From contig JAEOTR010000038.1 of assembly GCA_016839705.1 (NCBI GenBank), forward strand, positions 1 to 38,505: a stretch of DNA of 38,505 nt, given 5' to 3'. The position numbers and the translations under genes are program-made. Source of the stretch: Promethearchaeota archaeon. GTDB lineage: Archaea > Asgardarchaeota > Lokiarchaeia > Sigyniarchaeales > SOKP01. The stretch's first letter is position 1. Each line of letters starts with the position of its first letter. Shown here one piece after another: positions 1,603 to 14,295 of the stretch. The notes beneath the pieces were generated by a model, which made no database searches, had not been told where the DNA came from, and was given only the letters and a program-made list of their open reading frames with translations.

Positions 1603-2682
1603 TTAAACAACAAATGATGCTGCTTTTTTTAAAGCTTTTTCTGCATCTTTTATGATTGTTTCAACGATGTCTGAAACACTCTCAAGTTTGTTTATGATTC
1701 CTATACTTTGCCCTAATAAAACTCCTCCGTTTTCCATATCTCCTTGATAAGCAGCAAAAGCAGCTTTGGCATCTCTTCTTAATTCTTCACGTAATTCTTC
1801 CTCTGATATTGCTGTGCGGTGATCCACCAATGCTTTTTCTTCCGCGATCTTTTCTTCTTTGGTTTTCACTAAACCTTTTGATAAAGAATATTTGTTTTTC
1901 CATAATCTAATGGTTCCTAAACTTCCTGTTCTCACAAGTGTATCTTGAGCTTTCGCAGGTGGCACTACACCTTTATAATTTTCATGAAATTCACTGTCTA
2001 TAGATGCGATGAATCTTGATCCCATGGCGATCCCTCCAGCACCGATGGCTAAAGCTGCCGCCATCCCATTCCCTGTAGCAAATCCTCCACACGCGATTTT
2101 CGGAATATCAGGATGCTTCTGCTGTACCTGTTGTAATAATACCATCCCACCAACTTTTTCATAAGATTGGTGGCCTCCTCCTTCAAAACCAGTTACAACA
2201 AGACCGTCACAACCCGCAGCCACACATTTATCTGCCAGCCAGAGCGCTGGGGCAACATGGAAGTGTTTAATATTTGAATCTTTTCTTAATTTCTGAAAAT
2301 CTTCGTTTTTAGGTACTCGAGCTGCTGAACCCGCACTGCTAAGCGCATACAAACATTGTTCTTTCAATTTGGGATTTGCCATTATATGCTTAGAAGTTTC
2401 CGAAATCAATTCGTCGCAAATTACTTCATTTCTGGAAGTTCTCACGTTAAAACCAAAAATCCCATCAGTATGTTCAACAACAAAATCAAGATTTTTCAGC
2501 ATCGCATCGATGTAATTCTTTTCATAACCATCCATAGATACGTTTGTATGTGAAATCATACCAAGCCCGCCTGCATCTGCGACAGCTACTGCTAATTCGG
2601 TTGTTCTGAAAGGTCCCATCGCGGCGCTTGCGATTGGATGCTTAATTCCAAACATTTCAGTTATATTCGTTTTTAATACCAA
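1603..2682 (-). CDS. Nitronate monooxygenase / FabK-like enoyl-thioester reductase family FMN protein (paralog 1)
   Basis: KTNITEMFGIKHPI..AAMG, AVADAGGLG, GFEGGGH (catalytic His), IACGGFATG, IAMGSRF, LLGQSIG. TTG start preceded by an AAGGTGA RBS. Confidence 0.9.
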   Translation of the reverse strand: MVLKTNITEMFGIKHPIASAAMGPFRTTELAVAVADAGGLGMISHTNVSMDGYEKNYIDAMLKNLDFVVEHTDGIFGFNVRTSRNEVICDELISETSKHIMANPKLKEQCLYALSSAGSAARVPKNEDFQKLRKDSNIKHFHVAPALWLADKCVAAGCDGLVVTGFEGGGHQSYEKVGGMVLLQQVQQKHPDIPKIACGGFATGNGMAAALAIGAGGIAMGSRFIASIDSEFHENYKGVVPPAKAQDTLVRTGSLGTIRLWKNKYSLSKGLVKTKEEKIAEEKALVDHRTAISEEELREELRRDAKAAFAAYQGDMENGGVLLGQSIGIINKLESVSDIVETIIKDAEKALKKAASFVV

Positions 2683-2872
2683 AATAAATCACCTTCTATT
2701 CTAATTGAATTTAAACCTAAATAAAATTAAGCTTCTTTATGAGAAAATTATCCTATTCCATTTTATATATTTATTTAACTTGATTTGTCAGATTCTCTAT
2801 AAACTTTGGTGACATTGAAGATTCCGATATACAAATCGGATAATTTACTCATATTTATCGCTTAGGTTAATT

Positions 2873-3355
2873 CTATGATATAGAAATCATGTTCTCTGGA
2901 ATTTTAACGGCGAGGACTTCCCCTTTAACGCATAATTGCCCTTTAGCATATAAGTTAACTTCTACTATGACTTTTTTCCCTTTTATTTCTTTTACCTTTC
3001 CAATTAACTCTAGTTCTTGATCAATCGGGGTTGGTCTTAAGTAATCAACCTGAATAGAAGCGGTTACATATCGTAATTCGGGTTTTGTTCCCATTTTTCG
3101 CCCCTCTGATTTATAAACAGCGGCAGCAGCAGTTCCTGTTCCATGACAGTCAATTAAAGATGCCATTAATCCCCCATACACATATCCAGGAAAAGCAATA
3201 TAGTATGATTTAGGTGTGAATCGGGCAATACTCGTATTTTCATCCTCATTCCAGTAACTTTTAATCTTCATACCAACTTCATTCAATCTTCCACATCCAT
3301 AACAGTAACTCATTTGTTCGGAATAGTAATCTTGAAACGCTTTTTTTTCCACCAT
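2873..3355 (-). CDS. PaaI-like hot-dog fold thioesterase
   Basis: CYGCG motif, 'FPGYVYGGLMASLIDCHG', 'VTASIQVDYLRPTP'. Confidence 0.85.
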   Translation of the reverse strand: MVEKKAFQDYYSEQMSYCYGCGRLNEVGMKIKSYWNEDENTSIARFTPKSYYIAFPGYVYGGLMASLIDCHGTGTAAAAVYKSEGRKMGTKPELRYVTASIQVDYLRPTPIDQELELIGKVKEIKGKKVIVEVNLYAKGQLCVKGEVLAVKIPENMISIS

Positions 3356-3414
3356 ATTTATTCACAAATTTCATTATTACATTTTAAATATCGAATTTTC
3401 TCTTCTGGTATTTC

Positions 3415-3768
3415 TCACTTTTTATAATAGTCAAGAATTTTTAATGCAAACCTACTTGATACAGTTGCAGGACCACCTCCCATTTCAATTGCAACTTCTA
3501 GTGCTTCAATTATTTGCTCCTCAGATGCCCCAGAATTTAACGCTTGATTAATATGCCACTCCATACAAGATTCACAATTGATAACAACAGAGATACCGAG
3601 AGCAATGAGCTCTTTATACATTTTGCTTAAGTAGCTATCCTTGTAGGTGTTTCCCTCCAATTCAAGAAAGGATTGATATGCTTTTGACTTTTTATTTAAT
3701 AATAACTCATGTGCTTCTTTCCTACCAGATATGATTCTCTCAATTTTCTCTTTATCTTTTTGGTCCAT
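3415..3768 (-). CDS. Carboxymuconolactone decarboxylase / AhpD-like alkylhydroperoxidase family protein
   Basis: 'KELIALGISVVINCESCMEWH...GASEEQIIEALEVAIEMGGGP' with CxxC-x3-H motif. Confidence 0.88.
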   Translation of the reverse strand: MDQKDKEKIERIISGRKEAHELLLNKKSKAYQSFLELEGNTYKDSYLSKMYKELIALGISVVINCESCMEWHINQALNSGASEEQIIEALEVAIEMGGGPATVSSRFALKILDYYKK

Positions 3769-3996: not shown

Positions 3997-4230
3997 ATGA
4001 AGAGAAAAGTTGATAAAACTTATTTCATTGGTATTACGTTATTTCTATTTGGTTCACTCTCGATTTTATATGGGATTATAACCATGATTATAAGGTTGTT
4101 CTTGGGTTATACAGGAATTAATATTTTCGTTAAAGACGTGCTTTTCGACCCAGTTTTCCTACTTCTGGGATTAATTCTAATTAGAAGGTATAAGAACAAA
4201 AGTTTTCGATCAAATCACATTAAAAGATAA
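3997..4230 (+). CDS. Small hypothetical membrane protein (2 TM)
   Basis: 77 aa; two hydrophobic segments flanked by basic residues; fills an intergenic gap. Confidence 0.6.
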   Translation: MKRKVDKTYFIGITLFLFGSLSILYGIITMIIRLFLGYTGINIFVKDVLFDPVFLLLGLILIRRYKNKSFRSNHIKR

Positions 4231-4322
4231 AAATATTGTAAAACTGATGAATATTTAGCTTTTATTCTTAGATTTCAATAATATTTTTTACTGATATTGA
4301 TAATATCATTATTGAGATACAA

Positions 4323-4835
4323 TTGAAGGCACAAAAAAATACAAAGAAAAAACTTACTTCTCGTTTAGGGCAAAAGAAGAAATCCAAGGTTAAAAATGGG
4401 GAGGATTTAGATCGGGATGAAATTGTTAAAAATTTAAATGGTCGTACGCTTATGGTTTATTTTGCACTTTTAAATAAAAAATTTATCGGTGTACGCGATT
4501 TACAGCGACATTTAGAACTTTCAAGTCCTAGCGTAGCAAAATACCATCTTGAGAAATTGGTTGACTTACGTCTTGTAGAGAATAGAAATGGTATTTATCA
4601 TCTTGAAAGAAAAGCGAATTTGCCATTGTTAACTTCTTGGGTTTTGATCGGGAAACAACTAATCCCTAGGGTTATTTTCGCTGCTATTTTTTTTACTTTT
4701 CTTTTTATTGGTTATCTATTCCTAGTTTATACATATTGGAATAAAGATAGTTTATTTGTTATAATGTTTGGAGTACTAATTTTAGTTTATGTATGGTTTG
4801 ACGTGATCTTACAATTCAAACGGAAGCCAATTTAG
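4323..4835 (+). CDS. Membrane-anchored winged helix-turn-helix transcriptional regulator (ArsR-like HTH plus 2 C-terminal TM helices)
   Basis: 'LNGRTLMVYFALL...GVRDLQRHLELSSPSVAKYHLEKLVDLRLVENRNGIYHL' wHTH, then TMs 'VIFAAIFFTFLFIGYLFLVY' and 'LFVIMFGVLILVYVWF'. Confidence 0.85.
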   Translation: MKAQKNTKKKLTSRLGQKKKSKVKNGEDLDRDEIVKNLNGRTLMVYFALLNKKFIGVRDLQRHLELSSPSVAKYHLEKLVDLRLVENRNGIYHLERKANLPLLTSWVLIGKQLIPRVIFAAIFFTFLFIGYLFLVYTYWNKDSLFVIMFGVLILVYVWFDVILQFKRKPI

Positions 4836-4853
4836 TAAAAACCACATCTATCA

Positions 4854-4898
4854 TTGAGAACTCAGCGGGAGTTCTGAAATTTTTGATGGTGTTCTAAA
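4854..4898. promoter_or_regulatory. Inverted-repeat operator candidate upstream of the alpha-2-macroglobulin gene
   Basis: TTGAGAACTC-agcgg-GAGTTCTGAA (9/10 arm match) at 4854-4878, plus a third half-site GTGTTCTAAA at 4889-4898 (GTTCT repeated 20 bp apart). Confidence 0.5.
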
Positions 4899-4964
4899 CT
4901 TTAGTATAATAAATTTTGGTGATATAGTGTATTATAGAGTTGAATTTAAATTAGGAGAATAAAA

Positions 4965-7900
4965 ATGAATAGACACAGAAAAGGGAGTATCTTCTTATTA
5001 TTGGTTTGTATTCAATTTGTATTAATGGGTTTTAGTATTATGGGAACCAGTTCCTTTAATGAAAATGAGCAGGAAATTCCTAAAGAAAACGATCTTCCAA
5101 ATGAAGGCGTGTCACATTCATCTCCTTACTATTTTCCAATTAATAGATCATCCCCATTAATGACAGAAACATTAGAAGAAGTAGATTCTGATGAAAATCT
5201 CAAAACTGCTTATAATTATTATAATAATGATTATGTTTTAACACTCAATTTAGATAAATTCGTTCTTACAATCGGTGAAACTCTAACATTAAACTTAGGT
5301 TTAACCTGCAATTTATCTGCTTCCCCAGGAAGGATTATATCCGTAGAAATATATGAAGGATTTTACCGCAATTATTATTACTATTATCCAAGCTATTATG
5401 AGACTACAACACCAATTTATACGAAAAATCTTACTACTGATACTAATGGTCAAGCTTCAATGACATTCTCTTCGACGTCTACTGAAGGAATATATACCGT
5501 TTATGCCTACACCGAAGATTATCGAATTTATAAAGACTTTACCGTAGGTGAGGTTGGCATTTTCTATAAAGGACCAAGATATTATAAACCTAATCAGCAA
5601 TACCGCGCTGCTGTTCATATGGTTAATCTCACCGACTTTTCAGGTATACCATTTACATTTTTCAATTATTCAATTTCTTATTATCTATATTCTACTACCA
5701 GTTGGCATATATTGACAACAGATTTAATTCAAACCGATAATGCAGGATATTCGATTCTTAATACAGATATTCCGTTAGATGCTGATAATTATCATGTCCT
5801 TAGACTAACATTATCTACCCTTGATGGTAAAGCTGAGTATCAAACATTTTTATATGAGAGTTGGGAGTATTACTATTATTGTAGGTGGGGAGGACAGCAA
5901 AAAACTAATCAAGAACAATATCAATATGTTGTAACTACGGATAAAACAATCTATAACCCGGGTGATAATGTTTTTCTAAGAGCATTAGTGCTGCAGTACT
6001 CCTTTATGAATGAATCTAAAACTGCATTACATCATACCCCGATTTCCTTAACTATATATAATCCAGATGAATTTGCGATATTTTGGACAGATATTGTTAC
6101 TGACGAATTTGGCATCCTGTCTTTCAATTTTCCATTAGATGAAGATTGTGATCTTGGGAATTATGGTTTCGAGTTTAGTTATTCTGGTGAAACTTATAGA
6201 TATAATGTAAAGGTTGATTATTATATCAAACCTGTCTTCAGAGTAGAAATTGATACAAACGGAAAGGATTATTATTCTATTCATGAAAAATGGTTTGAAG
6301 GGTTTGTTGATGTTTCTTATTACTTTGGTCAACCGGTAGTAGGTGCAACTGTAGAACTAACGGTTCAAAGCTATTGGGGAGAAATCAAAAAAGTAATAGA
6401 AGGATACACAAATGGAGAAGGTAGATTTTATTTCTCAATAAATTTGCGGTTAATTCCGGATTTAGAGTACACTTTTAGAGTAAAAGCTGATGTAACCGAT
6501 GACTACGGAAGGAGTGCATCAACCGAAAAAATTTATACTCGTATTAGAGAATTATATGCTTATGGGTATTTAACAAATTGGGCACCTCATCCTGACGATA
6601 CTTTAGAATATTATTTTTATGCATTTCAATATGTTATGTCTGATTATGGTTATTGGTATTGGATGTATAATCCATTAGTAAATGTGAGTGTTAATATCGA
6701 AATCTTTGGAATTGCAAACTACCCTATCTATCCTTTAGTGTTAAAGGATAAACAACTTCTAACAACTTATTCTGAGAAAACAAATATATTTGGCTCTGGG
6801 AAATTAGAATTTAAACTACCATTAATTCATATAATGACATATAATCTCTTTGAAATTAGATTAACAGTTAATTTAGAAGATGGTCGAAGTACCTCTTCAT
6901 CTTACTATTATAGGTATAAGAAATACAGTTTGGACATTAATATACTAGAACCAACGTTAAACCCAGGCGATATTCTTGAATTTGAGGTTACTTTTAAAGA
7001 TATTCTCACAGGTTCTTCAAGTACAGGTGAAGGTAAAATATATATTTATGATGCTAATCACCAGTTAATTGGTCGGGTTAGTGATATAATATCTGGGAGT
7101 AAAACCTATACTTTTCTTATTCCAAGCTCCTCACCTGAAGGTAAATATTTTATTTATTCCTATGTTTATTCACGTCAAAATCAATATTATGGGGGATTTA
7201 ACTATCATTCTGCTCATGAAAACTTTATAGTGGGGGATTTTCAATCAATTTCATTTAGTACTAATTTTAGTACTACTGGAACTTATTATGATAAAATTAT
7301 AGTACAACTCGGTGATACTATTGAAATTAATGGTACTACAAATGTAACAACAAATATTCAGCATTATTTAGAGATTTATAAGCGTGGGGTACTTTTTTCA
7401 GTACCTTTAGAAATAAATGACAATAAATTTTCATATATTTTGTCTGTTATTCCTGAGTTTGTACCCGATTTTACTATAATTATCTACACAATCTCTGATT
7501 CAGGAAAACTTTATGAAAGTGTTCTAGCGGTACATATAGATTATAATTTTGGCATAAATCTTTCAACAGATAAAGAAACCTATGAACCAGGTGATCTAGT
7601 TACTCTAACCATAACACCAACAGAAAATATTACATCAGTTGTGGCACTTTCATTTATTGATAGTGCTGTTCTTGATGTAGAGCCAGAAGATGATTCCGAA
7701 TTAGCTTATTTTTCAGATCGTCCCTACTCAACCTACATTAGCTCAGGAAGCTCATGGGGATTTGGATTTAGTGCTGAAAGTTATTGGTGGTTTGGGTATG
7801 GCAGACTTACAGGAGGGATTTATTATTTACCACTGCCCTTGTTCGATGAATACTATACTGTATCGCTGGAATTCTTTGGTCGCGCCGATTTAAAATCTGA

Positions 7901-10900
7901 TACTCCTTCGTTCGATGAATTACTTTCTAATTTTGAAACGGATGTTCGAAAGAATATATCAGAATCAGCAAATTGGATGCCAGAATTGATAATTTCAGAA
8001 CCTACTGAGATCACTTTTAAGTTACCTGATAATATAGGTGAATGGACAATTAGAGCAGTGTGTAATAATATTTTTGAGAATTCTAACGATATTATCCTGT
8101 GGGGAGATGTAATAACCAAGCGGATTAAATCCTTTTTGCCATTTTTCATAGAATTTGAGATATCTGAACCTGTATTTCAAGATGATATCCTAAGCGTTAA
8201 AGGTTATGTTTACAATTATATTGGGACGGATGTTGATGCTACTGTGGCAATAAGTGCTCCTGAGCTTATTATATTGAATAAAGATGTACAAGAATTATTT
8301 ATTCCTGATGGCTATGTCTCTGAAGTGGAGTTTTCCGTATATTGTATAGAACCTTACTCCCAGAATATTACTCTTTTAGCGGCTGCTGAACCTTTTGGAG
8401 TAAAATATTCCGATGCTAAGCAATTGACAATTTATATCAAACCAAATGGTATTGAAATCATCAGTAGAACAATAGGTTTTTTAAATGCAACTGATGGGTC
8501 GCTAATTCTGAATCATACTATCGATCCCTTAACGATTTATCATAAAGAGACATTAGCATTATACGCCGATCTGATGGATATTTCTATCGATAGTTGGCAA
8601 TCCCTTATTGGCTATCCATATGGATGCATAGAACAAACAATATCTAAAACACTTCCCACAGCTCTTATATTTAATTATTTAAATCAAACCGGGCAACTTA
8701 CGAGTAATTTAAAGCAAGAATTGAGTTTTATGATTTTAGATGGCCTAGGTCGTATTTATAACTTTCAGCATAACGATGGTGGGTGGGGTTGGTGGAGAAA
8801 TGATGCTTCTAAAATAATAATGACTTCTATAGTCGTATTCGCGTTAAATAAAATTGAGGAAGTGGGATTCCAGATTAATTCAGATATTTTAAATAAAGGG
8901 ATAGATTATTTAATTGCACAACAACATCCGAATGGTCTCTGGGATTTTCAAGAATACTCTTCAAATACATTAGAAGCGACAGCGTTTATTTTAAAGACAT
9001 TTTTATGTTCAAAACAAATTACAACAGAGATGAATACAGCGATTACTAGTGCAGTTAGTGAGTTAGCAAATTTATGGAATTCAGGAGATATGAAGAGTAC
9101 ATATGGAGCTTCTTTATTTTATATTGCAACTCTAGGTAGCATTTATGAGAATATCACTCTAAATAATGAATTAATTCAATACATTAAAGACGATAAGAAG
9201 GTTGAAGAAGATACGATATTTTGGGAGAGTGATACAAACAGTATTTGGTATTGGCGAAAATTGGGGAAAAAAGTAGAGATTACCTCCTACGCTACATTAG
9301 CTCTTGCCATGGATGATTATATAAGCAATTATGCCTTAATCCAAAAAGCCGTTAGATTTTTGTTGAACCAGCGTAATCGTTGGGGTTGGGGATCAACAGC
9401 GGATACTTCAGCTGCAATTATAGCTTTAACAGAAATAAATGGGATTATGATTAATGGTGGAATCATAGATTTCAATGGAACAATTTCTATAATAGTCAAT
9501 AACAACACACCACCTCAATATTTTTTAAATGTTACAGAAATGAATAACCACCCAGATGAAATCTTATTAAAACTCTCTGCTTTTATGCTAGGGAATCTTA
9601 ATACAATCAATATTACACTAGACGGGATTGGTACAATATGTTATATATTTGAAAGTGTGCAGATTTTAAGGTCAGACCCAAAAATAGAGATCCCAGAGAT
9701 AATAGAAGTCTCTAAAAATGAGCATTTTTATTTCCCAGTAGAATTCTCAAACATTGATGAACGAATGCCATTGGTAGATACTACAATATCACTACTTGAC
9801 GTTCCTGATAATTTCTCTGATCCTGAAGCAGACTATATAATTGTTCACCCTCTCATTATAAATGGAAGCAAAATCTATTTTCCTTTAATAGCCCCAAATA
9901 ATGACGGTGATTATTTCTTAGAAGGAGTTTCAATTCTTGGTTATATTCAATACAATGACACCTCTAGTAATTCATCAAGATTTCAACCTTTTCAACAAAC
10001 AATCGGACCTATAATAATACGTGTTGGATCACATTCACAATCATTATTCCCATCCATTGAACCAATTAATCCCGTTATAGAACCACAAATAATAACTATT
10101 AAAAAACAAATGTCAAAACAAAAACTACTTACTTCAGGAGAAGTGATAAATGTCACATTACATATTACAAATACCGGAGACTCGCGCCAATTCTACGTCG
10201 TGGAAGATGAGCTACCTACAGGTACAGTTTTTTTACCTGATTCTGTTATAATCTCAGACAACTATGATGACACAGAAATTACTTATGGTTTATATTCATC
10301 GGGAATTCATTTCTTCTTCCCAATGCTAAGTACGGGAATTACAGAAATTATATATCAAGTTCAAGTAATAAATATTAAAAACGCTTACTCAGGTAGTTGC
10401 AAACTTTGGGGTATGTATGATGATATTCTTATTTCTGCAAAATCAATTGTGCTTGAAAACATTCCACGTAAACATTATGCTAATCAGTTGGTTTATCAAG
10501 ATTTAATGGAACCACTTATTTTAAACACCAGCATCAAACAAAGTTATAAAATCCCAGACATTCACCTTCAAATTAATATTGATGCAATCGACAACAATCT
10601 TATCAATAAAATTCGGGTCGTTTTTTCACAAAAATCTGGCTGGAGATCTCAAACTCTATATTCAATGGATAATCAAGGTGAATTCTCAATTACTATTACA
10701 GATCTCAAGAACATTAACTCTGTGATAACATTATTTATTGAAGTTTCTGATATATATGGTAATACAGCTACAATGATATTAATGCCAATAAAAATTACCG
10801 CTTATGAACTTATACCTTATTTAATCGTGGTGATAATTGTAGGTTTTTCAATTGGATTGGCTAGTATATCTACGATTCTGTATAAGAACTCAGTAGAAAA

Positions 10901-10994
10901 GAAAAAAAGAATAAATGATAGTTGGGATGAGAAACCTAAGGATGTAATCTCATTTTTAGATAACTCTGATGAAAAATTTGAAATCTCTTCTTAA
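4965..10994 (+). CDS. Alpha-2-macroglobulin family / thioester-containing protein with signal peptide and C-terminal TM anchor
   Basis: MG-domain motifs (TTDKTIYNPGD, STDKETYEPGD, TDEFG, VDYYIKPVFRV), 'VRKNISESANW...FKLPDNIGEWTIRA', thioester YPYGCIEQT (C1221, nt 8625-8636), TED motifs FQHNDGGWGWW, VEITSYATLA, WGSTADTSAAIIAL, terminal MG-like 'GEVINVTLHI...YVVEDELPTG'. AGGAG RBS. Confidence 0.93.
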   Translation: MNRHRKGSIFLLLVCIQFVLMGFSIMGTSSFNENEQEIPKENDLPNEGVSHSSPYYFPINRSSPLMTETLEEVDSDENLKTAYNYYNNDYVLTLNLDKFVLTIGETLTLNLGLTCNLSASPGRIISVEIYEGFYRNYYYYYPSYYETTTPIYTKNLTTDTNGQASMTFSSTSTEGIYTVYAYTEDYRIYKDFTVGEVGIFYKGPRYYKPNQQYRAAVHMVNLTDFSGIPFTFFNYSISYYLYSTTSWHILTTDLIQTDNAGYSILNTDIPLDADNYHVLRLTLSTLDGKAEYQTFLYESWEYYYYCRWGGQQKTNQEQYQYVVTTDKTIYNPGDNVFLRALVLQYSFMNESKTALHHTPISLTIYNPDEFAIFWTDIVTDEFGILSFNFPLDEDCDLGNYGFEFSYSGETYRYNVKVDYYIKPVFRVEIDTNGKDYYSIHEKWFEGFVDVSYYFGQPVVGATVELTVQSYWGEIKKVIEGYTNGEGRFYFSINLRLIPDLEYTFRVKADVTDDYGRSASTEKIYTRIRELYAYGYLTNWAPHPDDTLEYYFYAFQYVMSDYGYWYWMYNPLVNVSVNIEIFGIANYPIYPLVLKDKQLLTTYSEKTNIFGSGKLEFKLPLIHIMTYNLFEIRLTVNLEDGRSTSSSYYYRYKKYSLDINILEPTLNPGDILEFEVTFKDILTGSSSTGEGKIYIYDANHQLIGRVSDIISGSKTYTFLIPSSSPEGKYFIYSYVYSRQNQYYGGFNYHSAHENFIVGDFQSISFSTNFSTTGTYYDKIIVQLGDTIEINGTTNVTTNIQHYLEIYKRGVLFSVPLEINDNKFSYILSVIPEFVPDFTIIIYTISDSGKLYESVLAVHIDYNFGINLSTDKETYEPGDLVTLTITPTENITSVVALSFIDSAVLDVEPEDDSELAYFSDRPYSTYISSGSSWGFGFSAESYWWFGYGRLTGGIYYLPLPLFDEYYTVSLEFFGRADLKSDTPSFDELLSNFETDVRKNISESANWMPELIISEPTEITFKLPDNIGEWTIRAVCNNIFENSNDIILWGDVITKRIKSFLPFFIEFEISEPVFQDDILSVKGYVYNYIGTDVDATVAISAPELIILNKDVQELFIPDGYVSEVEFSVYCIEPYSQNITLLAAAEPFGVKYSDAKQLTIYIKPNGIEIISRTIGFLNATDGSLILNHTIDPLTIYHKETLALYADLMDISIDSWQSLIGYPYGCIEQTISKTLPTALIFNYLNQTGQLTSNLKQELSFMILDGLGRIYNFQHNDGGWGWWRNDASKIIMTSIVVFALNKIEEVGFQINSDILNKGIDYLIAQQHPNGLWDFQEYSSNTLEATAFILKTFLCSKQITTEMNTAITSAVSELANLWNSGDMKSTYGASLFYIATLGSIYENITLNNELIQYIKDDKKVEEDTIFWESDTNSIWYWRKLGKKVEITSYATLALAMDDYISNYALIQKAVRFLLNQRNRWGWGSTADTSAAIIALTEINGIMINGGIIDFNGTISIIVNNNTPPQYFLNVTEMNNHPDEILLKLSAFMLGNLNTINITLDGIGTICYIFESVQILRSDPKIEIPEIIEVSKNEHFYFPVEFSNIDERMPLVDTTISLLDVPDNFSDPEADYIIVHPLIINGSKIYFPLIAPNNDGDYFLEGVSILGYIQYNDTSSNSSRFQPFQQTIGPIIIRVGSHSQSLFPSIEPINPVIEPQIITIKKQMSKQKLLTSGEVINVTLHITNTGDSRQFYVVEDELPTGTVFLPDSVIISDNYDDTEITYGLYSSGIHFFFPMLSTGITEIIYQVQVINIKNAYSGSCKLWGMYDDILISAKSIVLENIPRKHYANQLVYQDLMEPLILNTSIKQSYKIPDIHLQINIDAIDNNLINKIRVVFSQKSGWRSQTLYSMDNQGEFSITITDLKNINSVITLFIEVSDIYGNTATMILMPIKITAYELIPYLIVVIIVGFSIGLASISTILYKNSVEKKKRINDSWDEKPKDVISFLDNSDEKFEISS

Positions 10995-11519: not shown

Positions 11520-11728
11520 AAATAAAATACTATTTTATAATAATAAACCTATAATTTTTGATTTCTTCTTAGAAAGTTTCTTGTTATCTTTATGAAGTAT
11601 AAGCTCTTAAAAATTAGAGAATCATATTTTTTTTTCTTCCCTTTATTTTATAAATAAAAACGTCACCCAAAAAATTAATTTTAATAATTCTGCTAATTTA
11701 TACAACTCAATACAAGGTGATTTATAAA

Positions 11729-12760
11729 ATGATTGAAACGAATATTACAAAAATGTTTGGGTTGAAATACCCTATATTTTCTGCACCAATGGGTCCTTTT
11801 TTCACACGAGATTTAGCCCTTGCGGTGAGTGAAGCTGGTGGATTGGGTGTATTATCAAATGTTAACATAATTGGAACAAATCCAGTTGAAGAACATAAAA
11901 AAAGCATTGAATATATGATTGAACATACTGATAAACCATTTGGTCTCAATTTTCTTACATCTCGTAACAATATAGGTGTTAAGGAAATGTGTACTGATGT
12001 TCCGAAAATAGTTATGGATAATCCGAGAATGAGAGAGCAATGTGTCTATTGGTTGACCTCTGCAGGATCCTCAAAGATTCTACCTGCTTCGAAACCCTTC
12101 CAAGAGTTACGGGAAAGATCGGAAGTAAAACACTTTCACGTAGCACCAGCTGTATGGTTAGCACAGAAATGTGTAGAAGCCCAGGTGGATGGAATAGTAT
12201 GCACTGGTACTGAAGGAGGAGGACATCAGTCCTATGAGAAGGTTACAACGTTAGTTTTACTCCAACAACTTGCAAAAGCTTTCCCGGATTTGCCTAAAAT
12301 TGCATGTGGAGGATTTGCAACAGGAGAAGGTTTAGCAGCAGCATTATCATTAGGAGCAGGAGCAATAGCTATGGGTTCACGATTTATAGCATCAAAACAA
12401 AGTGAATTTAATGAAGCGTATAAAAAATTAATCCCTCCAGGAACCCCTCAAGATACAGGATTGTTTACCGGGTCTTTCGGTCCTATCAGATTATATCGGA
12501 ATAAATATGCGTTAGAGCATCCAGCACCCTCTACTAAAGAGGAAATGATGGCTTATGAAAGATCCCTAACGATGGAACAGAGGACACGTGATGCAGGTGC
12601 ATATGAAAGGATATATAACGGAGATACTGAAAATGGTGCAGTATTACTTGGACAATCAATCGGAATTATTAAGAGTATTGATGATGTAAACGATATCATT
12701 GAAAGAGTCATGAAAGAAGCAGAATCAGCGATACGTAAAAATGCTGCTATGCTTAAATAA
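11729..12760 (+). CDS. Nitronate monooxygenase / FabK-like FMN protein (paralog 2, close to paralog 1)
   Basis: Same motifs as paralog 1 (GTEGGGHQSYEKV, IACGGFATG, IAMGSRF). The GTG at 11717 is part of an AAGGTGA RBS, so the start is probably ATG 11729. Confidence 0.9.
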   Translation: MIETNITKMFGLKYPIFSAPMGPFFTRDLALAVSEAGGLGVLSNVNIIGTNPVEEHKKSIEYMIEHTDKPFGLNFLTSRNNIGVKEMCTDVPKIVMDNPRMREQCVYWLTSAGSSKILPASKPFQELRERSEVKHFHVAPAVWLAQKCVEAQVDGIVCTGTEGGGHQSYEKVTTLVLLQQLAKAFPDLPKIACGGFATGEGLAAALSLGAGAIAMGSRFIASKQSEFNEAYKKLIPPGTPQDTGLFTGSFGPIRLYRNKYALEHPAPSTKEEMMAYERSLTMEQRTRDAGAYERIYNGDTENGAVLLGQSIGIIKSIDDVNDIIERVMKEAESAIRKNAAMLK

Positions 12761-12811
12761 AACTTTACATATTTACAAAAATCTTTTATTTTCTTTTATA
12801 TTGAGATTTAA

Positions 12812-13246
12812 TTAACCAGAAAAATTTTTTAGTTTCTGCAACTCTTTTTTAAGATCATCGGGGATGATTGCTTTTTTTTTTTCTTCATAGTTATACCACA
12901 CTATATGAGCTTCTCCTTCAGCAGCTGTACGATTCAATTTTTTACTCAGTATAGAATGATGAATAATTATTTTTGATTCTTCAATAGCTTTTATTTTGGC
13001 ACCAACATAGACGGTGTCGGGATAAATCAAAGGAGCCTTATAATAGCAATCTTGGTATGATAATATTGGAGCGATACGAGCTGTTGTAGGATCTTTATAG
13101 ACATTCAACAATTCAAATAATGCTATCCGTGAACTCTCAAAATATCTGTAATAAATTGTATTATTAACATGCCCTCTAGCATCCATGTCTCCCCATCGGA
13201 TGGGTATCTCCATAACCACAGGGAAATTCTTTAATTTTTCGGTCAT
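12812..13246 (-). CDS. Acyl-CoA thioesterase (4HBT/YbgC/FadM-like hot-dog fold)
   Basis: 'IRWGDMDARGHVNNTIYYRYFESSR' family signature; 'YKAPLIYPD'. Confidence 0.9.
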   Translation of the reverse strand: MTEKLKNFPVVMEIPIRWGDMDARGHVNNTIYYRYFESSRIALFELLNVYKDPTTARIAPILSYQDCYYKAPLIYPDTVYVGAKIKAIEESKIIIHHSILSKKLNRTAAEGEAHIVWYNYEEKKKAIIPDDLKKELQKLKNFSG

Positions 13247-13323
13247 TGTTTCATCTCTGATTAATCAATTCTAAAATACATAGAAATAAAATTATAGAAA
13301 TAAGAAATTTAATAAAAATAAAT

Positions 13324-14295
13324 TTAAAAAGTGGTTTTTAACCTATTAATAACAGATTCGGCTTCTTCCATTATTCTATCCAATAATTCCTTTGCAGTAG
13401 GAATATCTTTAATTAAACCTATACCTTGACCACAGCTTACCATACCCGCGTCTATTTCACCTTCTCTATACATTTTTAATGCATTTTGACCAGAGGCTAC
13501 TTGAATTATTTCCTCTAAAGGAGCTTTTTTAGATTCCAATTCAATTATTTTTTCAGCAGCTTTATTTCTCCAAACTCTATGGGTATTACGAATAGATCGC
13601 ATGACTAAATGAGTATCTGTTTCTTGAGCTTGAACAAAAGCTTGTTTTAGATTATCGTGAATAGGACATTCTTGAGTTGCCATCATCCTAGTCCCCATAA
13701 TAACACCTTCAGCACCAAGTGCTAAAGCAGCAGCAATTCCTCGTCCATCGGTAATTCCTCCCCCAGCGATTACTGGAACATCTATAGCATCTACAACACA
13801 TGGGGTCATAACAAGAGTACCGATATCTAAAGTTCCTGTTGCACCACCATTTTCATACCCAACTACAGTTATCATATCAGCGCCCAAAGATGCAGCTGTT
13901 TTGGCATATCTTACACCTGCACATTTATGAATCCAAATAGCGCCACCATCCCTAAATTTTGGGACCAAATCTGCAGGGGCCTTATGGCCACTTGTTTCGA
14001 TTATTTTCGCACCCTCATCAAGAGTTGCTCCTACATACAGTTCCAATTTCTCTTGCGGCATCATTGCGGGAAATAAATTTATATTTACAGCAAAGGGTTT
14101 ATCAGTTAAGGACTGTGTTTTTTTAATTGCTTCCCGTAACTCATCAGGAGTTTTGTAATTAGCACTGGCTAAAACCGCACATGCACCAGCATTGCTTACT
14201 GCAGCAACAAATTCAGGATTTGAGATATTTGCCATAGTCCCCGATATAATAGGATATTTACATCCTAACATTTCAGTAACTTTCGTTTTAATCAT
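13324..14295 (-). CDS. Nitronate monooxygenase / FabK-like FMN protein (paralog 3; His replaced)
   Basis: KTKVTEMLGCKYPII, AAVSNAG, TDKPFAVN, GYENGGA (canonical EAGGH), PVIAGGGITDGRG, GVIMGTR, CGQGIG. Confidence 0.9.
   Translation of the reverse strand: MIKTKVTEMLGCKYPIISGTMANISNPEFVAAVSNAGACAVLASANYKTPDELREAIKKTQSLTDKPFAVNINLFPAMMPQEKLELYVGATLDEGAKIIETSGHKAPADLVPKFRDGGAIWIHKCAGVRYAKTAASLGADMITVVGYENGGATGTLDIGTLVMTPCVVDAIDVPVIAGGGITDGRGIAAALALGAEGVIMGTRMMATQECPIHDNLKQAFVQAQETDTHLVMRSIRNTHRVWRNKAAEKIIELESKKAPLEEIIQVASGQNALKMYREGEIDAGMVSCGQGIGLIKDIPTAKELLDRIMEEAESVINRLKTTF

Follow-up and report, generated by a model that had tools for sequence, protein, structure and literature searches.

A small membrane-anchored winged-helix protein and a conserved GTTCTAA promoter box linked to an alpha-2-macroglobulin gene in a lokiarchaeial genome

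Is the small membrane protein encoded directly upstream of an alpha-2-macroglobulin (A2M) gene in a lokiarchaeial (Asgard) genome a transcription regulator of that gene, and if so, which site in the gap between the two genes would it use? We addressed this question in a stretch of 38,505 nucleotides (the window; contig C21) from a 3.36-Mb metagenome-assembled genome of 31% G+C that is 93% complete. An initial annotation of the window had described an open reading frame (ORF) encoding a winged helix-turn-helix (wHTH) followed by two transmembrane (TM) helices, a 129-bp gap before the A2M gene, an inverted repeat in this gap and a third GTTCT half-site beyond it, and all of these features were found where it had placed them (Table 1). 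Comparison with related genomes suggested that the 170-residue protein is probably a minimal membrane-resident transcription regulator dedicated to the adjacent A2M gene, and that the site it would bind is a conserved GTTCTAA box at the A2M promoter.

The gene pair and its two products

Linkage of the two genes was assessed in the four reference genomes with an ortholog of the small protein among 201 sampled from the phylum (E < 1e-50; G156, G049, G165 and G094) and in 41 further loci from genome and metagenome contigs. An A2M ortholog lay directly downstream on the same strand in all four reference genomes, and a same-strand A2M ortholog followed in each of the 31 fetched loci that reached far enough, usually 127-157 bp from the stop codon of the small gene. 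The expectation of the initial annotation that the pair would be conserved in relatives was thus borne out, and the linkage is established. Within the sampled order, the two genes co-occurred in the same five assessable genomes and in no others, a sixth A2M gene being on a contig that ends too early to be assessed. Pairwise distances of the small protein and of the A2M were correlated with r = 0.95 overall and 0.92 within the main clade, and on these comparisons the pair is inherited as a unit. The genes flanking it varied from locus to locus; in the window (1603-3768 and 11717-14295) they are nitronate-monooxygenase-like (PF03060), 4HBT thioesterase and CMD-family genes. The flanks differed in every relative, and of the 10 genomes of the genus only 3 had the pair, which thus behaves as a cassette of two genes.

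The pair was also seen in a modified form. In a deeper subclade (L060, L061 and L089, and probably L088, L090 and L091), an AIM24-family gene on the opposite strand lay between the two genes; in L060 it occupies 8540-9260 on the minus strand and encodes 240 residues (PF01987, E 1e-53). The A2M promoter of this subclade read AATTTAGAACAC-N14-GTTC(T/G)AA.

The AlphaFold2 model of the small protein, built with 28 homologs, had a pLDDT (predicted local distance difference test) value of 77 and consisted of a disordered Lys-rich tail (net charge +8 over 30 residues), a winged helix, a short hairpin (residues 106-115) and two long helices joined via YWNKD, with about 20 modelled residues (95-116) between the wing and the first TM helix (TM1). 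A hydropathy scan of the orthologs likewise gave two C-terminal hydrophobic segments. The description of the upstream gene product in the initial annotation as a membrane-anchored winged-helix protein is supported, and we regard this predicted architecture as shown. Outside the membrane the protein shows the five-residue loop only, and no sensor domain was seen in it. Its 164 close relatives (60-89% identity), the nearest of which bear Lokiarchaeota or Promethearchaeota labels, are nearly all exactly 170 residues long, and the TTG start was kept in most orthologs. In an alignment of 117 orthologs, the commonest residue of a column had a mean frequency of 0.89 for the winged helix, 0.86 for the juxtamembrane segment, 0.82 for TM1, 0.90 for the outer loop, 0.73 for the second TM helix (TM2) and 0.45 for the basic tail. 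The TM hairpin with its outer loop (0.73-0.90) is therefore about as conserved as the winged helix, indicating that it is more than a passive anchor.

Structural searches with Foldseek placed ArsR/SmtB and MarR folds (CadC, SmtB, PagR and BigR) among the best matches for the winged helix. The probability was 1.0 but the E-values were 0.02 or worse because the domain is small, and the target-normalised TM-score to ArsR/SmtB proteins was 0.5-0.64. PBP2, a non-regulatory winged-helix protein, was also among the matches. In Pfam, the window protein matched ArsR (PF01022, HTH_5), TrmB and HTH_20, in each case below the gathering score. Over 28 family members, TrmB reached E ≤ 0.01 in 19 and HTH_5 did so in 8 (best 3.5e-4), and sub-threshold matches to ArsR, TrmB, LexA and HTH_20 were found in many.

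The downstream gene encodes an A2M-family thioester protein with domains above the Pfam cut-offs (PF07678, 3e-33; PF01835, 3.5e-17; PF07703, 7e-10; PF00207; PF17791). It contains MG2, MG3, bait-region, A2M and TED domains together with the CxEQ thioester motif (GCIEQ, residues 1220-1224), starts with a hydrophobic signal or anchor, ends in a TM helix, and is the only TED-bearing gene in the source genome. The transglycosylase domain of pbpC-type proteins (PF00912) gave no match in the genome, which is 93% complete, in agreement with the earlier remark that pbpC is absent.

The C-terminus of the A2M distinguishes proteins linked to the small gene from those that are not. All 12 distinct linked A2Ms (among them L053-L061, L068 and L080) carried a conserved TM helix followed by a tail of 26-45 residues, in which a basic stretch precedes the motif (V/I/F)SF(L/I)D(E/D)SE. 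This motif was missing from 10 of 10 unlinked Asgard A2Ms, nine of which end in short basic stubs and one of which (L034, family f18) has a longer basic tail. The acidic motif may serve as a point of contact, be phosphorylated or direct sorting. The co-occurrence of the tail with the small protein is compatible with feedback from the A2M to its regulator, and in one version of such a circuit the A2M would itself be the sensor: cleavage of the bait region or firing of the thioester would alter the TM helix and acidic tail, and the tethered winged-helix protein would read this change, in the membrane or in the cytoplasm, and adjust the GTTCTAA promoter. We consider this version unlikely. If true, a thioester protein would supply the ectodomain of a transmembrane signalling device made up of two proteins, in the archaeal lineage to which eukaryotes are closest.

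Table 1. Coordinates of the gene pair, its promoter elements and parts of its products in the window
Feature	Position	Strand	Description
TATA-like element of the small gene, CAATAATATTTTTTAC	4276-4291	+	About 32 bp before TTG; kept in most main-clade loci; putative promoter
Small (candidate regulator) gene	4323-4835	+	TTG start, 170 aa; from translation, AlphaFold2, Foldseek, Pfam and conservation by region
Small protein, N-terminal parts			Basic disordered tail aa 1-28; winged helix aa 31-94; predicted recognition helix PSVAKYHLEKL
Small protein, C-terminal parts			Conserved juxtamembrane segment; TM1 aa 117-137; outer loop YWNKD; TM2 aa 143-166
Inverted repeat AGAACTC-AGCGG-GAGTTCT, then GAAATTTTT	4857-4884	+	Terminator-like, lineage-specific; right arm holds the distal GTTCT
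Distal GTTCT half-site	4871-4875	+	Precedes the proximal box by 20 bp (two helical turns); lies in the right arm of the palindrome
Promoter box T-GTTCTAAAC-TTTAG-TATAATAA (= T-GTTCTAAACTTTAGTATAATAA)	4890-4912	+	Candidate operator GTTCTAA abutting the presumed B recognition element (BRE)/TATA of the A2M gene
Shine-Dalgarno-like AGGAG	4953-4957	+	7 nt before the A2M ATG; GGAG kept in most of the main clade
A2M-family thioester protein gene	4965-10994	+	2009 aa; from Pfam; ATG at 4965
A2M C-terminal TM helix (aa 1950-1973) and 36-aa cytoplasmic tail	10812-10991	+	Basic stretch, then acidic motif
Acidic motif VISFLDNSDE of the A2M tail	10944-10973	+	Conserved in A2Ms linked to the small gene

The gap between the genes and its conserved box

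To locate conserved elements in the gap, 28 distinct orthologous spacers were aligned on the last GTTCTAA. A 23-bp box was nearly invariant in all of them, while the sequence upstream of it had diverged; this conservation is established. The box includes the proximal GTTCT (4891-4895), the third half-site of the initial annotation, which lies 20 bp past the distal GTTCT and is fused to the TATA box. GTTC was present exactly 20 bp upstream in 13 of the 28 spacers and in degenerate versions at the same place in the others, and the proximal and distal GTTCT form a direct repeat with a 20-bp period. In the 3.36-Mb genome, both GTTCT-N15-GTTCTAA and the composite box occurred only at the A2M promoter. 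The 9-mer GTTCTAAAC was present in 34 copies against about 42 expected from base composition. A general promoter consensus of the source genome was therefore rejected as an explanation of the box, the 9-mer not being enriched and the composite box occurring at one intergenic site. Other matches to a relaxed pattern in the genome were chance-like, and the one inspected (C34) lay inside an ORF. A sigma-70-type promoter scan is uninformative for an archaeal host.

The position of TATAATAA (4905-4912) should place the transcription start of the A2M gene near 4935, and the AGGAG would then serve its ATG. At the other end of the small gene, CAATAATATTTTTTAC may act as the promoter, and its distance from the TTG start suggests a very short leader, or none, on that transcript. 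From the linkage and the conserved box, the best reading of the locus is a dedicated two-gene regulatory circuit, in keeping with the general proposal of the initial annotation.

The part of that proposal that concerned the operator fared differently. The initial annotation had taken AGAAC-N9-GTTCT (4857-4875) as the operator and had proposed control by envelope damage or proteolysis; in its full form, the regulator bound there would be dimeric, and damage to the envelope or cleavage within the membrane would release or switch it. The repeat does exist: its arms, TTGAGAACTC (4854-4863) and GAGTTCTGAA (4869-4878), match at 9 of 10 positions around AGCGG (4864-4868), include a perfect 7-bp stem (AGAACTC/GAGTTCT) and are followed by T5 (4880-4884). 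Among the 28 spacers, however, AGAAC-N9-GTTCT was found in the window alone, the left arm reading GAGATCTC in the nearest relatives and GAGTTCTC in one of them. Of the motif expected to be conserved upstream of A2M genes, GTTCT was thus retained and the palindrome was not; what is conserved is the third half-site within the 23-bp box and, less strictly, the right arm, which is the semi-conserved distal GTTCT. Shuffling the gap yielded a perfect inverted repeat of at least 7 bp with a loop of 3-12 nt in 15% of cases, and the palindrome by itself therefore has no statistical significance. Three or more GTTCT/AGAAC words in the 129 bp are rare (0.1% of shuffles). An inverted arrangement, TTAGAAC-N14-GTTCTAA, is present with a different spacing in the deep clade and in family f22, which speaks for an operator of this kind. 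Against a proteolytic switch, neither a sensor domain nor a protease site was seen, and no linked protease gene was found in any locus examined, site-2 proteases not having been searched for. We rejected the palindrome as a conserved operator, and regard the dimeric, proteolysis- or damage-controlled version as very improbable.

Alternatively, the hairpin and T-run may simply end the transcript of the small gene, or be neutral, with the A2M gene transcribed from its own promoter. This is quite possible, if short of likely, and is compatible with the 170-residue protein acting at the GTTCTAA box. The hairpin with its T-run was the sole terminator-like site within 4200-5050 (0.1 expected); it begins 22 bp past the stop codon, is followed by a complete promoter-like box, and gave z = -2.6 in RNA folding. 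T5 or longer runs were present between stop and box, at varying positions, in 10 of the 28 spacers. However, archaeal termination is generally held to require only oligo-T, the hairpin was absent in relatives, and the remaining 18 spacers had no T5; read-through co-transcription could therefore still occur. The initial annotation had named a terminator role as one of the outcomes that would count against its operator, and this applies in part, since the hairpin and T-run are terminator-like. An Rfam search of the spacer gave no match at E ≤ 1, and an RNA element was dropped from consideration.

The box beside other members of the protein family

Proteins with a wHTH and two TM helices (wHTH-2TM) formed a large family, with matches in 117 of 201 genomes surveyed within the phylum, often in several copies each, and 1856 clusters in a profile search of the database. 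In 13 genomes of family f12, the box GTGTTCTAAAC(C/T)GTAGTCTAATA begins 4-9 bp past the stop codon of the paralog and is followed by a Shine-Dalgarno sequence and a 105-residue two-TM gene. Examples are L096, L099, L102 and L104 (~5420-5800), where the GTGTTCTAAAC box accompanies a conserved 105-residue protein without a Pfam match. On this arrangement, the paralog and the 105-residue gene are a second module of the same apparent design, free of A2M. Elsewhere in f12, the box is also present ahead of small single-TM proteins, and two copies separate an ABC permease operon from a soluble 80-residue ArsR-family protein, whose helix STAAYHLKRL resembles SVAKYHLEKL of the window protein (YHLxxL common to both). 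In family f7 (L108:2604-4973, L113 and L107), the paralog is divergent from a DUF3160 gene (753 aa; ~750 aa, with an N-terminal TM segment), and the strand of the latter carries GTTCTAAAG-N14-GTGTTCTAAAACATGGTAC with a 21-bp period. A stricter box pattern gave 19 matches in five other genomes, whereas its reversed control gave 8. That the box accompanies the protein family is established by these loci, and is the main new evidence.

A2M genes of the families f22, f18 and f24 encode proteins about 27% identical to the window A2M and have a PolB or PIN-domain gene upstream, with no adjacent regulator. We therefore rejected the possibility that the small gene adjoins all Asgard A2Ms, the upstream gene being a family B DNA polymerase in f22 and a PIN-domain protein in f18. 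At the f22 A2M promoters, TTCGAAC/TTAGAAC is nevertheless retained, some 20 bp before GTTCTAATGCTTGGTAT. The f24 locus L037 (G092:C123) has a perfect palindrome, CCTTGTTCTAATATTAGAACAAGG, upstream of the A2M, a palindromic GTTCTAA site with another arrangement of the half-site. The f22 genomes also encode an unlinked wHTH-2TM protein, which branches close to the A2M-linked clade with weak support (81-83).

Autoregulation was considered and rejected: in the window there is no GTTCTAA box upstream of the small gene, and a box at this position in L083 and some f12 loci is too sporadic. The only paralog in the source genome (30% identity; G000:C42:54006-55751, also L004:6007-7754) overlaps the end of a NosD/right-handed beta-helix gene, with which it probably forms an operon, and no GTTCTAA box was found near it.

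These distributions bear on a different role for the small protein, in which it would act as partner to the A2M in the membrane (for example by anchoring it, helping in its assembly or linking to its cytoplasmic tail as an adaptor), the winged helix of the small protein would serve protein contacts, and the box would be a core promoter or the site of another factor. Such a role would fit the conservation of the TM hairpin and outer loop, which is on a par with that of the winged helix, an A2M TM helix and acidic-motif tail that are conserved in the linked clade only, the presence of PBP2 among the structural matches, the lack of any Pfam DNA-binding family at threshold, and the f22 A2Ms, which retain the box without an adjacent regulator gene. 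It accounts poorly for the signature S-x-x-A-x-Y-H-L-x-K-L of the recognition helix and the Lys-rich tail, which are typical of DNA binders, and for the occurrence of the box beside paralogs with other neighbors than A2M and beside a bona fide ArsR-family relative. A single transcription factor family with a conserved recognition helix and half-site explains the distribution of the box better than a partner specific to A2M, and we judge the partner role to be improbable.

From the established architecture, linkage, box and association of the box with the family, we infer DNA binding, a direction of control and an input signal for the 170-residue protein as follows. The winged helix would be held at the inner face of the membrane by the two-helix hairpin, the protein staying in the membrane throughout. 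It would contact the proximal GTTCTAA (4891-4899), helped by the weaker distal GTTCT, the two sites lying on one face of the DNA in a manner suited to a protein about 20 residues from the bilayer. Bound there, it may modulate the recruitment of TBP and TFB at the A2M promoter. In characterised archaeal systems, a site just upstream of the BRE usually goes with activation, and we lean towards activation here, since the presumed BRE directly follows the box. The small gene would have its own promoter and, in the source genome, also a terminator formed by the hairpin and T-run. The signal could enter by way of the conserved TM hairpin; alternatively, the A2M could pass it on by its own conserved TM helix and acidic cytoplasmic tail.

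Several observations weigh against this mechanism. The evidence for DNA binding and promoter control is comparative, consisting of GTTCTAA beside family members in at least four genomic contexts, and the invariant box may in part be just the core promoter. The assignment of the fold to a DNA-binding family is also a point of doubt: the window protein did not reach the gathering score of PF01022 (16.7 bits against 22), a sequence profile search of the PDB gave nothing significant, the Foldseek E-values were 0.02 or worse, and winged helices can also serve protein binding, as the match to PBP2 suggests by analogy. Geometry is a further difficulty. With about 20 residues between the wing and TM1, the DNA would need to lie against the membrane, and the distal site is direct in the main clade and inverted in the deep clade and f22, so that one geometry of binding cannot account for every case. 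Finally, no box was found adjacent to the paralog loci of f22, and the several paralogs of a genome would share the same half-site.

Meaning and comparison with known systems

Almost nothing is known of gene regulation in Asgard archaea, and the locus provides a concrete candidate for a regulator and its operator from comparative genomics alone. The analysis also corrects the cis-element, placing the candidate control site within 4865-4915 and not in the hairpin. Conservation of the box reaches deeper than that of the target proteins, since it persists at A2M genes only 27% identical. Because the target is a surface-anchored thioester protein of the complement/A2M type, the module bears on envelope defence or policing, and also on ways in which a surface protein could influence its own expression by feedback. 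If the A2M were itself the sensor, a reading that we consider unlikely, the wHTH-2TM family with its GTTCTAA box would more broadly couple envelope proteins to their own promoters, as a system general to Asgard archaea.

Among the target proteins, the comparison is with bacterial A2M-PbpC operons (ECAM/YfhM type) and the MagD operon of Pseudomonas, in which a large trap tethered to the cytoplasmic membrane belongs to a conserved small cluster. No PbpC gene adjoins the A2M gene in the window, where the neighbors are the nitronate monooxygenase, thioesterase and CMD genes. The bacterial anchor is an N-terminal lipid, whereas here it is a C-terminal TM helix with a cytoplasmic tail, and the bacterial partner is an enzyme, whereas the conserved partner here is regulator-like. 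Archaeal A2M homologs have been described as archaea-specific thioester proteins with CxEQ and signal peptides, accompanied in Halobacteria by the HTH regulator arCOG02808 (Makarova et al., 2021, PMC8416519). The latter is not the same protein: it is a larger HTH regulator with an implied role in bacteriocin systems (PMC8416519). In the searched text and supplements of that study there was no sign of the Asgard pair, nor of a two-TM regulator or a GTTCTAA box. Full-text literature searches combining Asgard or Lokiarchaeota with macroglobulin or thioester proteins gave no paper describing such a protein in Asgard archaea, and no publication was found on a module of a tethered regulator and an A2M.

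On the side of the small protein, ArsR/SmtB regulators have a recognition helix of the pattern S-x-x-S/A-x-x-H-L-x-x-L. They (CadC, SmtB and PagR) were among the best structural matches and share a similar pattern. Unlike them, the window protein has a Pfam match below threshold, shows no ArsR-type dimerisation helices in the model and is anchored in the membrane. ToxR-type regulators combine an OmpR-like DNA-binding domain with a periplasmic sensor domain; unlike these, the window protein exposes about five residues outside. It resembles transmembrane transcription regulators (TTRs) such as ToxR, CadC and TcpP in having a putative DNA-binding domain and TM regions in one polypeptide and in its proposed regulation from the membrane, and with two TM helices conserved across the family it has the predicted transmembrane region (at least one) by which TTRs are defined (PMC10269533). 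According to a survey of bacteria and archaea (Demey et al., 2023, PMC10269533), an archaeal genome encodes about four TTRs on average, and 17% of all TTRs are two-TM forms; its main text contains neither of the terms 'Asgard' and 'Lokiarchae'.

ArnR and ArnR1 of Sulfolobus acidocaldarius are membrane-bound one-component activators of the archaellum operon, with boxes at -43 to -84, upstream of the BRE, and EarA is cited in the same connection (PMC6396743). ArnR has HAMP-like and sensor domains between its HTH and TM segments, where the 170-residue protein has only about 20 residues; its boxes are inverted repeats (TCGAC-N5-GTCGA), whereas those here are GTTCTAA with a 20-21 bp period; and its target is a type IV pilus structure, here an A2M. 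The likeness is one of architecture: both are archaeal and combine an N-terminal HTH with two TM segments at the C-terminus, and both act, or are proposed here to act, from two boxes that precede the BRE and TATA box (PMC6396743), at the promoter of a cell-surface structure. By this analogy, ArnR and ArnR1 are the closest characterised analogs of the candidate regulator.

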